Assembly (NCBI GenBank): GCA_964578395.1
Contig: CAZOCV010000001.1
Coordinates: 6,738 to 43,743 of the forward strand
Reading direction: 5' to 3'
Source: an uncultured Pirellulales bacterium
GTDB taxonomy: Bacteria; Planctomycetota; Phycisphaerae; Sedimentisphaerales; SM23-30
Length of the DNA: 37,006 nucleotides
Position numbers and translations under genes: made by a program. Below are positions 1,694 through 4,039 of this stretch, in pieces; positions within the stretch are counted from its first letter, which is position 1; each line of letters begins with the position of its first letter. The notes under the pieces were generated by a model. The model worked only from the letters and a program-made list of their open reading frames with translations, ran no database searches and was not told the origin of the DNA.

Positions 1694-1722
1694 TCACGGG
1701 TTTCTACTTAGAATTTATTTGT

Positions 1723-1751
1723 CCGCAGATTACGCAGATTTGCGCAGATAA
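1723..1751. repeat. left inverted-repeat arm, three tandem CGCAGAT-containing units
   Basis: CCGCAGATTACGCAGATTTGCGCAGATAA is read directly. CGCAGAT occurs three times at about 10-nt spacing. Confidence 0.95.
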
Positions 1752-1768
1752 GACAAAAAGACATCATT

Positions 1769-2179
1769 ATGGCTTTAAAAAGAGACGAACAAACATATGC
1801 AATTATTGGGGCGGCGATGGAAGTGCATAATACTCTTGGTCGTGGTTTTCTGGAAGCGGTGTATCAGGAGGCGTTGGCGATTGAGTTTAAAAATAGAGAC
1901 ATTCCTTTTCAACGCGAAGTCCAACTGCCCGTCTATTACAAAACAGAGAAGCTGTCCACTATTTATAAAGCGGATTATGTCTGTTATCAAACAGTCATTG
2001 TCGAATTAAAAGCCCTCGACATCATAACCACAACCGAAGAATCTCAATTGATAAACTACCTGAAAGCTTCAGGTTTTCATCGAGGATTAATTATTAATTT
2101 CGGTTCGGTTAACCTTCAATATAAACGTCTGGTTCTAAACTTCGATAACGAACAATTACTCATAGATGAAAAAATATGA
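1769..2179 (+). CDS. GxxExxY family protein (PD-(D/E)XK nuclease fold)
   Basis: The 136-aa translation contains LGRGFLEAVYQEAL, the GxxExxY signature. A D...VELK-type core (ADYVCYQTVIVELKA) is typical of PD-(D/E)XK folds. The size and N-terminal pattern (YAIIGAAMEVHNTLG) fit the family. Confidence 0.85.
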   Translation: MALKRDEQTYAIIGAAMEVHNTLGRGFLEAVYQEALAIEFKNRDIPFQREVQLPVYYKTEKLSTIYKADYVCYQTVIVELKALDIITTTEESQLINYLKASGFHRGLIINFGSVNLQYKRLVLNFDNEQLLIDEKI

Positions 2180-2192
2180 AAATAATATGGTT

Positions 2193-2221
2193 TTATCTGC
2201 GTAAATCTGCGTAATCTGCGG
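2193..2221. repeat. right inverted-repeat arm, three tandem ATCTGCG-containing units
   Basis: TTATCTGCGTAAATCTGCGTAATCTGCGG is the reverse complement of the left arm except at one position (T2202 opposite G1742). Confidence 0.95.
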
Positions 2222-2236
2222 ATAAAGGCTTTAATC

Positions 2237-3349
2237 ATGCCCCCTGTAACAGAACAAATAAAAGTGCCTTATCTCGACCTGCGAGTTACCGATAATGAAC
2301 AGCGTCAGGCATTGCTTGATGCCGTAGCGCGAGTTTTTGATCACGGTCGGATGATTATGGGGCCGGAAGTAGCCCAGTGGGAAGCAGAACTTGCCCGCCG
2401 CTGCGGCCGGAAATTTGCTGTCGGCGTTAATTCGGGCACCGACGCTCTTTACATGGCCGGACGAATACTGGACCTGCACCCCGGCGATGAAGTCATCACC
2501 ACGGCTATGAGCTGGATAGGAACCGCTAACGGTATCGCCCTGACCGGCGCTACGATGGTGTTCGCCGATATCCGCGATGACCTGAACATCGACCCCGACA
2601 GCGTCGCCCGCCTGATTACGCCCCGCACCAAAGCTATTATGCCGGTTCATTACACCGGTAAAGTGTGCGATATGGATGCGTTACAAAAAATCGCTACAAA
2701 ACATAACCTGCCCATCATCGAAGACGCCGCTCAGGCGTTCGGCGCCGCATATCATGGACGGCCCTCTGGAAGTTTTGGCCGAATTGCCTGTCTAAGCATG
2801 AACGCCATGAAGGTTTTGGCGGCGTGCGGCGAGGCCGGAGCCGTACTCATCGACGACCCTTCCCTGCACGAACGACTTACGGCATTGCGCTATAATGGTA
2901 CGGTCAACCGGGAAACCTGCCTCGAACCCGGCCTTAATGCCCGCCTGGACACCCTACAGGCTGCGATTTTATTGGTACGGCTGCAATATTTCGACGAATT
3001 GGTGGAAAAACGACGGCTTATTGCCCAAAAATATGAAGAAAAACTCTCCGATTTGGTAAAAACGCCGCGCGAAGCGGAAAACTGCCGCGATGTCTGGTAC
3101 ACCTACACCATCCAGACCGACCGGCGGGATGCTCTTCGCGCTTATCTGACCGACAACGGCATCGAAACCAAAATTCACCACCCCATTCTCATGCCTGAAC
3201 AACCGGCATACCGTGATAACGCGCGGGGCGAATGGAAAAACGCCAGCCGAATACTGGGACGCATGTTATCAATACCCGCTCATGAAAAAATGACGCCGGA
3301 ACAGGTTGATTACGTCGCGGCCGCCATCAGGAAATTCTATGGAGCCTAA
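2237..3349 (+). CDS. DegT/DnrJ/EryC1/StrS family PLP-dependent sugar aminotransferase
   Basis: The 370-aa product carries family-typical strings: GPEVAQWEAELA, NSGTDALYMA, IIEDAAQAFGA, and SMNAMK with the candidate PLP lysine. It sits among glycan genes. Confidence 0.9.
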   Translation: MPPVTEQIKVPYLDLRVTDNEQRQALLDAVARVFDHGRMIMGPEVAQWEAELARRCGRKFAVGVNSGTDALYMAGRILDLHPGDEVITTAMSWIGTANGIALTGATMVFADIRDDLNIDPDSVARLITPRTKAIMPVHYTGKVCDMDALQKIATKHNLPIIEDAAQAFGAAYHGRPSGSFGRIACLSMNAMKVLAACGEAGAVLIDDPSLHERLTALRYNGTVNRETCLEPGLNARLDTLQAAILLVRLQYFDELVEKRRLIAQKYEEKLSDLVKTPREAENCRDVWYTYTIQTDRRDALRAYLTDNGIETKIHHPILMPEQPAYRDNARGEWKNASRILGRMLSIPAHEKMTPEQVDYVAAAIRKFYGA

Positions 3350-3845
3350 GCCAAAATCCACAACCTTTTATAATAACCAGGATATCATCGCGGTCGGCCC
3401 GGAAGATTTGGAAAAATTACGCCATGCCGCACGTCACGACCCCCTTGGCCGGGCGCGGCTATGCCTGCATCATCATGTCAACGACGCAGTCCATGAAATG
3501 GTAATTGCTTTTCAGAAAAGCAGTTACATTCATCCGCATCGCCATTTTCATAAAAGCGAATCCTTTCATCTTATCGAGGGCGAGTTGCTGGTGGTGTTTT
3601 TTGACGATGACGGAAAAGAAACCTCGCGTTTGCGGCTGGCGGAGCAGAGAAAAAACGGCCTATTTCTGTATCGGCTGGCGGCAAGCCGCTGGCATACGCT
3701 TATCCCCTTAAGTGAATGGGTAATTATCCACGAAACTACGCCCGGCCCATTCCGGCCGGAAGACACCGAAATGGCGAATTGGGCGCCTGCCGAAATTCAG
3801 GTTGAGACCGTTAAAGCCTTTATCTCAAAAATAATCAGGGCGTAA
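3339..3845 (+). CDS. wbuC: WbuC family cupin-fold metalloprotein
   Basis: RARLCLHHH..HEMVIAF..SYIHPHRH..ESFHLIEGEL..WHTL..HETTPGPF matches my memory of the WbuC cupin pattern. ATG 3339 has AGGA 8 nt upstream and overlaps the aminotransferase stop. The track start 3306 is an upstream in-frame alternative. Confidence 0.7.
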   Translation: MEPKPKSTTFYNNQDIIAVGPEDLEKLRHAARHDPLGRARLCLHHHVNDAVHEMVIAFQKSSYIHPHRHFHKSESFHLIEGELLVVFFDDDGKETSRLRLAEQRKNGLFLYRLAASRWHTLIPLSEWVIIHETTPGPFRPEDTEMANWAPAEIQVETVKAFISKIIRA

Positions 3846-4039
3846 AACACACCCTGGCATCGATAAAACCGTGGGCAGGATGCCATCGATACACACTTAA
3901 CGCTTTTTTGTGGAAAACATAGCCAATAATAACTTTAACTATATTAACAATAATAAGATACATCCGTCATCCAGACGAACTGACATAGGGATAAAATTAA
4001 AGCCTGCCCCGGCGAACGCCCGATAACTAGAAAAAGTGT

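Follow-up and report, generated by a model that had tools for sequence, protein, structure and literature searches.

Between two genes of a glycan operon in an uncultured planctomycete lies a small gene enclosed by a long inverted repeat, and the question raised by this locus is what such an enclosure represents: a working part of the operon, a processed RNA, or a piece of DNA that persists on its own account. The window analysed here is the whole 37,006 nt stretch (assembly GCA_964578395.1, contig CAZOCV010000001.1, positions 6,738 to 43,743, forward strand), and positions 1718–2226 (+) of this window hold the element in question, a cassette made of two inverted arms of CGCAGAT units and one open reading frame (ORF) for a GxxExxY protein. 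This cassette is an insertion at an intercistronic junction of the glycan operon of a Sedimentisphaerales-like genome, and it belongs to a very widespread, and apparently undescribed, cassette type in which a GxxExxY gene is boxed by phased CRCRGAT arrays. The explanation that we favour, held at a little under an even chance and by analogy, is that of a selfish nuclease-plus-repeat module, related to ORF-less hairpins as REP-associated tyrosine transposases (RAYTs) are to REPINs, the hairpin-forming doublets of repetitive extragenic palindromes (REPs).

An insertion in a glycan operon

The arms of the cassette occupy 1718–1754 (+) and 2190–2226 (−), are 37 nt long each, 92 % complementary and 435 nt apart, and form the only strong inverted repeat of the window, in which the arm sequence is present as this copy only. 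Both contain three heptamers, reading CGCAGAT in the left arm (1724–1730, 1733–1739 and 1743–1749) and ATCTGCG in the right arm (2195–2201, 2205–2211 and 2214–2220). Measured from the outer end inward, the units are spaced by 9 and then 10 nt in the left arm, and the right arm mirrors this. The outer ends are TGTCCGCAGAT on the left, where the family consensus taken from a family-wide position profile is TTATCCGCAGAT, and ATCTGCGGATAAA on the right. The inner 29-mers (1723–1751 against the reverse complement of 2193–2221) match at 28 of 29 positions, with G1742 opposite T2202 as the sole difference. A first-pass annotation, made from the letters of this DNA, had described the same inner arms and mismatch, a pairing that reached 1718 and 2226, and an interior holding the 136-aa GxxExxY ORF alone (1769–2179, +), all of which is reproduced here; its three units per arm also stand, whilst the uniform period of about 10 nt that it gave them does not.

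That the cassette is an insertion is apparent from comparison with related operons. Upstream lies the gene for a radical S-adenosylmethionine (SAM) enzyme (614–1693, +; PF04055, E-value 5e-23), the stop codon of which is followed by 24 nt and then the left arm; downstream, 10 nt beyond the right arm, starts the gene for a DegT/DnrJ/EryC1-type aminotransferase (2237–3349, +; PF01041, E-value 7e-105), which is 85 % identical to P0122 from a Sedimentisphaerales metagenome-assembled genome (MAG). The closest relative found, the Sedimentisphaerales MAG locus L342, has an aminotransferase of 85 % identity, a radical SAM C-terminus of approximately 90 % identity and the same downstream gene order as the window, and here only 9 nt separate the radical SAM stop from the aminotransferase start, the cassette being missing from the junction. 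At L343 (65 % identity) the two genes overlap, again with no cassette, and at L127, from another Sedimentisphaerales MAG, they are adjacent and the junction is empty. From these three empty junctions it follows that the window lineage has gained approximately 530 nt at the intercistronic site. The self-contained insertion module proposed at first pass is thereby borne out, as is the junction of some 40 nt expected without it, which comes to 34 nt when 1718–2226 is removed or 44 nt when 1723–2221 is removed.

With regard to base composition, the cassette displays a GC content of 0.381 against a window mean of 0.530, making it the lowest 499-nt stretch of the window and placing it 15 points under the flanking genes; the AT-richness previously judged by eye is therefore now computed. 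The GxxExxY gene itself has a GC of 0.380 and a GC at third codon positions (GC3) of 0.358, compared with a GC3 of 0.58–0.68 for the neighbouring genes. Its nearly perfect arms, and a GC far under that of the host, suggest that the window copy was acquired fairly recently. Promoters and terminators on the sense strand do not exceed chance level in the cassette, and a scan of metagenome contigs for the exact junction returned 0 matches.

The operon as a whole runs through genes for a methyltransferase, the radical SAM enzyme, the DegT aminotransferase, a DUF6016 protein, a glycosyltransferase, a radical SAM/SPASM protein and a B12-radical SAM protein, and 18 of 20 related loci retain the methyltransferase/radical SAM pair. 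GC falls a second time, to 0.37, at 3801–4000, over the 194-nt gap before the 734-aa glycosyltransferase gene, where the cluster may have an internal promoter region.

The GxxExxY protein

The 136-aa ORF is assigned to PF13366 (PDDEXK_3; E-value 1e-39, 135.9 bits against a cut-off of 22), its only Pfam match, and to NCBIfam TIGR04256 (E-value 7e-42, 142.4 bits against a cut-off of 35), predicting a PD-(D/E)XK-fold nuclease. When 25 sequences, the window protein amongst them, are aligned, the columns G26-F-L-E29-A-V-Y32, D69 and E79-L-K81 are invariant, and E29, D69, E79 and K81 are accordingly intact in this copy. An AlphaFold2 model (pLDDT 91.9) displays an alpha/beta core, and Foldseek comparison with the PDB returns weak, generic PD-(D/E)XK matches (restriction-endonuclease-like, Cas4 and RecE). 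A sequence search of the PDB with the window protein gave no match, so that by sequence no solved structure exists for the family, and a literature search turned up no biochemical paper on GxxExxY, PF13366 or TIGR04256 proteins. Neither the defence library PADLOC nor the phage library PHROGs holds a match. The family is large, with more than 7,900 GxxExxY clusters at an E-value below 1e-10 among the candidates scored, and its genes apparently occur many times per genome. In the collection of phage records no GxxExxY homologue is present, and plasmid records contain 8 only.

Gene and arms across phyla

Besides an alignment of 25 homologues, the architecture of the window was compared with that of 80 GxxExxY loci, each representing one species, drawn from many phyla at 56–68 % identity. 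Amongst the 77 genes with both flanks available, 59 possess a CRCRGAT array upstream and an inverted array downstream, as in the window, and 72 possess at least one arm, against a background of 0.22 arrays per kb away from the genes. The earlier suspicion of a widespread, uncharacterised cassette type is thus well founded, and no description of the cassette or of the repeat was found in literature searched for the protein family, for intervening-sequence and four-helix-bundle proteins, for PDDEXK genes with inverted repeats and for the repeat itself. Cassettes typically span 413–475 nt and have sharp ends, of the form (T)(T)ATCCGCAGAT ... ATCTGCGGAT(A)(A), with the position profile dropping steeply outside ATCCGCAGAT. 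Distant GxxExxY subfamilies (35–51 % identity) likewise have boxes, built from variant units. On annotated records these units read CRCRGAG in Bacteroides and Bernardetia and CACGGAT in Treponema, and in each record the gene lies co-oriented between two unrelated genes; CRCRGAG units also box the gene of one unclassified MAG (variant-unit loci L447 522–993, L449 545–995, L445 540–1000 and L202). Residue Y118 (Ile versus Tyr/His/Phe) was considered as a determinant of arm specificity, being the only column that splits GAG-arm from GAT-arm proteins, and was rejected as this is approximately what chance would give.

Gene and arms also prove to be closely matched to one another. The units fall into spacing classes of 9+10, 9+9 and 10+10, and the spacing of one arm is mirrored in the other in 35 of 37 cassettes, where 16 would be expected under random pairing of arms; moreover, the spacing class tracks the protein tree across phyla, a value that 0 of 2000 permutations reached. 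The mirrored spacing and the agreement with the protein tree show that gene and arms have been inherited, and transferred between phyla, as a single unit. In many cassettes the 3′ end of the ORF runs into the right arm, the two being fused in frame with offsets of 3-nt periodicity. Database proteins consequently begin TQMNADK or end NLRESAQSAD, because the arms are translated in frame with the ORF, and the repeat-derived peptides proposed at first pass are borne out by such tails (TQMNADK, NLRESAQSAD and SADYTDYHR), all of which are translated arms. The GC of the GxxExxY gene is under that of its flanks at 69 of 73 loci, by a mean of 7.4 points, which fits a history of transfer.

Individual loci display further arrangements. 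At L154 (1466–2773; OW818681.1, approximately 3.35 Mb) three identical cassettes stand in tandem with a period of 443 nt, each junction consisting of a right arm, 16 nt and a left arm. Two cassettes lie in restriction-modification operons: that at L425 (1760–2340) has a left arm beginning 1 nt past the hsdM stop, and that at L436 (1–3010) is located between an N6_N4 methyltransferase gene and RhuM/ResIII. In L208, L211, L144, L145, L157, L162 and L163, complete short hairpins (left arm, loop, right arm) are found at one or both sides of the gene, or two right-type arms in direct orientation, which suggests that arms have been duplicated locally. Certain junctions are filled in several genera of one lineage, as in Verrucomicrobiota (L143, L168, L194 and L195), in Phycisphaerae upstream of a trpG-like gene (L146, L155 and L204), and in Gallionellaceae/Nitrosomonadales upstream of a gene starting MKF.IYRYNP (L166, L191 and L196).

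DNA level or RNA level

The foremost alternative to a selfish DNA module is an element that acts in RNA. Here the arms would pair in the polycistronic transcript, and the stem would either be cut by an RNase III type of activity, freeing the nuclease mRNA, or bring the radical SAM stop beside the aminotransferase start; by either route the insertion would do little harm to operon expression. Several features are as such an element would have them. The sense strand is predicted to fold with a 37-bp stem that closes the cassette in full (−154 kcal/mol, z −5.8), 39 loci have the cassette in the same orientation as both neighbours, as opposed to 7 in the opposite sense, and the arms border on the stop codon upstream and the ribosome-binding site downstream. 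The mirrored unit spacing would hold the arms in register, and 88 % of arm positions are Watson–Crick complementary across 58 distinct cassettes. The antisense strand, however, folds equally well (z −5.4), and the mismatches of the same 58 cassettes comprise 32 that are compatible with G-U pairing in the sense strand, 53 that are so in the antisense strand and 100 transversions. The argument made earlier from the window's G-U pair does not extend to the family: in the absence of a sense excess this single pair is not part of any trend.

What is conserved in the arms also points elsewhere. The heptamer cores are nearly invariant, whilst the spacers match at 38–86 % of positions within a cassette and at 24–61 % between cassettes, so that selection acts mainly on motif and spacing, which points to recognition by a protein; pairing, for its part, would require no conservation of the heptamer across phyla and archaea. 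The residual correlation between the arms, together with the mirrored spacing, is also compatible with pairing. Arrays without a partner are common. The flanks, rich in U on the 5′ side and in A on the 3′ side, have a polarity opposite to that of an intrinsic terminator. Nor is any Rfam family matched: on the region itself, searched up to an E-value of 10, only TMV_UPD-PK1 and RUF1 appear, both at chance level, and the 40 related loci searched at the gathering threshold yield one tRNA only.

The inserted sequences of 23S rRNA (intervening sequences; S23p, with a stem cut by RNase III) offered the first-pass annotation a parallel at this level, and indeed share with the cassette a small ORF inside inverted repeats, a long potential stem, and insertion in a transcribed, co-oriented context. 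That parallel finds no support here. None of 40 GxxExxY loci is in rRNA, the window copy lies between protein-coding genes, and the protein belongs to another family. Of the four-helix-bundle type (23S_rRNA_IVP) two loci were present in 2.9 Mb of fetched DNA, one without a boxing inverted repeat and the other (L436, upstream of the methyltransferase) without a CGCAGAT arm at its 3′ end, the only end that is readable. Taken together, we consider an RNA-level element unlikely, although it keeps perhaps the best claim amongst the alternatives.

Arms without the gene

The distribution of the arms themselves was assessed by two arm-pattern scans of 185,579 species genomes, each returning at least 120 matches, and the figures that follow hold among the matches listed. 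These extend over cyanobacteria, Planctomycetota, Verrucomicrobiota, Acidobacteriota, Nitrospirota, proteobacteria and Chloroflexota, and include archaeal sites in Methanoperedens, Methanosarcinales and Thermoplasmatota. Next to a GxxExxY gene lie 3 of the approximately 130 sites from the first scan and 9 of the 160 from the second. About 90 % of the listed sites are instead ORF-less hairpins or single arrays, which makes arms in these forms some 10 times commoner than arms with the gene. For the 160 window-type sites listed, the nearest inverted partner is within 60 nt at 47 and at 61–250 nt for another 40 (87 up to 250 nt); it is at 251–600 nt for 9, of which 7 enclose a GxxExxY gene, and at 601–2000 nt for 2. 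A further 37 have no partner within 2 kb, and 25 are too near the end of the fetched DNA. Arms face inward in 43 cases and outward in 9.

Arrays are mostly located just past the ends of unrelated genes, with single arrays standing beside ordinary housekeeping genes. Several assemblies were matched repeatedly, and three hold a cassette as well as separate arm loci; in Oligosphaera ethanolica DSM 24202, a cultured carrier, both are present. In the viral contigs of IMG/VR, 81 arm-bearing stretches were found, and some contigs carry at least 8 hairpins of approximately 90 nt with related loops and unrelated flanks. Contigs of viral or prophage-like character with many arm hairpins of approximately 90–110 nt and no GxxExxY gene include L348, L363, L380 and L400 (IMGVR_UViG_3300044816_000209), then L344, L358 and L388, and separately L392. 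In Nostocales, orthologous single arrays with conserved flanks (L007, L020 and L068) have 3 or 4 units, and this difference implies that arrays gain or lose whole units. A seven-unit tandem GAACGCAGAT array without a partner in Alicyclobacillus mengziensis (L077, 7227–7293) is probably an unrelated slippage repeat caught by the pattern.

Two further readings were tried and set aside. The notion that ORF-less hairpins are deletion derivatives of the gene found a sole candidate, a single weak match (E-value 0.03), and the ~370-aa ORFs that seemed to form a family upstream owed this appearance to the way in which the fetched loci had been trimmed, those ORFs being mutually unrelated.

This distribution bears on a second alternative, according to which the arms form a generic, REP-like family that has its own role or way of spreading (binding of a host protein or stabilisation of mRNA, for instance), and the nuclease is unrelated to them and serves, for example, in defence or repair. 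The first-pass annotation had set generic REP-like arms, found mostly without an enclosed ORF, against its own proposal, and this is what the listed sites display. The geneless majority, the arms in viral contigs that hold no GxxExxY gene, the single arrays near housekeeping genes and the cassettes within restriction-modification operons would all be accommodated by such hitch-hiking. Seen from the side of the gene, however, the picture is different: arms are borne by 72 of the 77 genes, and the co-variation of spacing class with the protein tree and the in-frame fusion of the right arm to the ORF imply that arms travel with the gene. GxxExxY is, moreover, the only gene family that arms repeatedly enclose, the one other gene seen in a comparable position being that for a CDGSH iron-sulfur protein of 79 aa, with an arm hairpin on one side and another, single arm on the other (L224, 1250–1813). 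The association of gene with arms is therefore very strong, although arm sites mostly lack the gene. A defence role gains nothing from PADLOC or PHROGs, and we know of no host factor common to bacteria and archaea that reads CGCAGAT, which also counts against independent arms. We regard this second alternative as improbable, and slightly more so than an element acting in RNA. That an ordinary small gene has come to be enclosed by chance, or through an artefact of assembly, might be suspected of a single contig from a metagenome assembly. The probability of this is practically negligible, as a 29-mer pair of this kind no more than 2 kb apart is expected 2e-8 times in 37 kb and the same architecture recurs in dozens of assemblies independent of one another, isolate genomes and complete plasmid records among them.

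Comparison with known systems

The closest likeness is to REP/RAYT/REPIN systems, in which a gene also lies between its own inverted repeats (here in the window and in 59 of 77 family members), ORF-less hairpin doublets are far commoner, intergenic and just past gene ends, target-site duplication is missing, and repeat variant and gene co-vary. REPIN-type doublets dominate the listed arm sites and recur within single assemblies or contigs, the 37-kb window being without a second copy. The differences are equally plain. The cassette protein has a PD-(D/E)XK fold and approximately 125–136 aa, unlike the HUH/Y1 (IS200/IS605-like) transposase of RAYTs, and its gene is, as noted, apparently many per genome, where a RAYT occurs once per REP family. 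The arms consist of 3–4 phased heptamers with a core motif common to phyla and archaea, unlike REPs, which are single palindromes with a GTAG head and lineage-specific sequences.

Transposable elements of the miniature inverted-repeat kind (MITEs) and their autonomous partners with terminal inverted repeats (e.g. IS630/Tc1-mariner) resemble the cassette in having sharply delimited terminal inverted repeats, short derivatives that are non-coding and share the ends only, multi-copy families within a contig, and orthologous sites that are both filled and empty. In contrast to DDE transposons of this type, the single ORF of the cassette is a PD-(D/E)XK protein rather than a DDE transposase, and target-site duplications of at least 3 nt are lacking; at ~415–500 bp the cassette is also far smaller than any known autonomous insertion sequence. 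Free-standing homing endonuclease genes (T4 seg/mob and the PD-(D/E)XK enzyme I-Ssp6803I) are similarly small nuclease genes between two operon genes, with GC under that of the host and presence or absence between relatives, but are not known to have terminal inverted repeats or non-coding hairpin companions. Integron cassettes share a promoterless ORF co-oriented with host transcription and an imperfect palindrome at the boundary. Unlike these, the present cassette has the same repeat on both sides (TGTCCGCAGAT and ATCTGCGGATAAA) and no attC core (GTTRRRY), and its relatives are dispersed amongst operons as single copies instead of forming a stack at one attI site. No integron integrase was seen nearby, where the neighbours are glycan-modification enzymes, in an analysis that included no search aimed at integrases.

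A nuclease that may maintain its own repeats

If the cassette is a selfish module comparable to RAYTs and their REPINs, its gene would lack a promoter of its own and be expressed by read-through from the host operon. The heptamers, set approximately one helical turn of DNA apart, would be candidate binding sites for the predicted nuclease, which may act at or near the ATCC termini. Its activity, together with host repair, could then spread and maintain cassettes and, in trans, the ORF-less hairpins, much as a RAYT transposase with its flanking REPs stands to REPINs. A bolder version, for which our confidence is lower, is that bacteria and archaea harbour a new class of element, mobile or selfish, with a ~125-aa PD-(D/E)XK nuclease as sole protein, phased CRCRGAT/CRCRGAG ends, and many hairpin derivatives in genomes and phage-like contigs.

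Several observations weigh against a selfish module of this kind. At ~125 aa the protein is small for a nuclease expected to join DNA as well as to recognise a sequence. The best homologue is 69 % identical, no near-identical second copy of the cassette was found, and exact-protein look-ups place the window protein in its source contig only, with one context per protein. Some cassette positions are kept across genera at the same intergenic junction, which indicates long residence at some sites rather than frequent movement, and combined with the missing near-identical copies this implies that movement is rare. The hairpins vary in what lies between their arms, where no remnants of the GxxExxY gene are present, and 720 kb of arm-bearing viral contigs are devoid of that gene. 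Finally, 217 arm pairs, compared at every offset, are without a target-site duplication of at least 3 nt. An AT of 2 nt is present in 50 % of pairs, compared with 38 % of shuffled pairs, and is indistinguishable from an extension of the inverted repeat. The lack of a duplication excludes ordinary DDE transposition, and leaves open hairpin- or repair-based routes.

Implications

For the host operon the consequence is immediate, as it holds a foreign insert, and the cassette should not be counted in the glycan pathway. For GxxExxY proteins, a very large family, a tie to a conserved repeat would provide a testable hypothesis, namely specific recognition of CRCRGAT arrays. The same tie would explain a class of intergenic hairpins, as well as many of the spurious, repeat-derived peptide tails in public annotations, and may define a type of mobile element built on the restriction-endonuclease fold rather than on HUH or DDE chemistry. 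A short nuclease/site pair, sequence-specific and phased, would also be of interest to builders of DNA tools. Should the proposed element class prove true, the cassette would be the smallest autonomous DNA element known.

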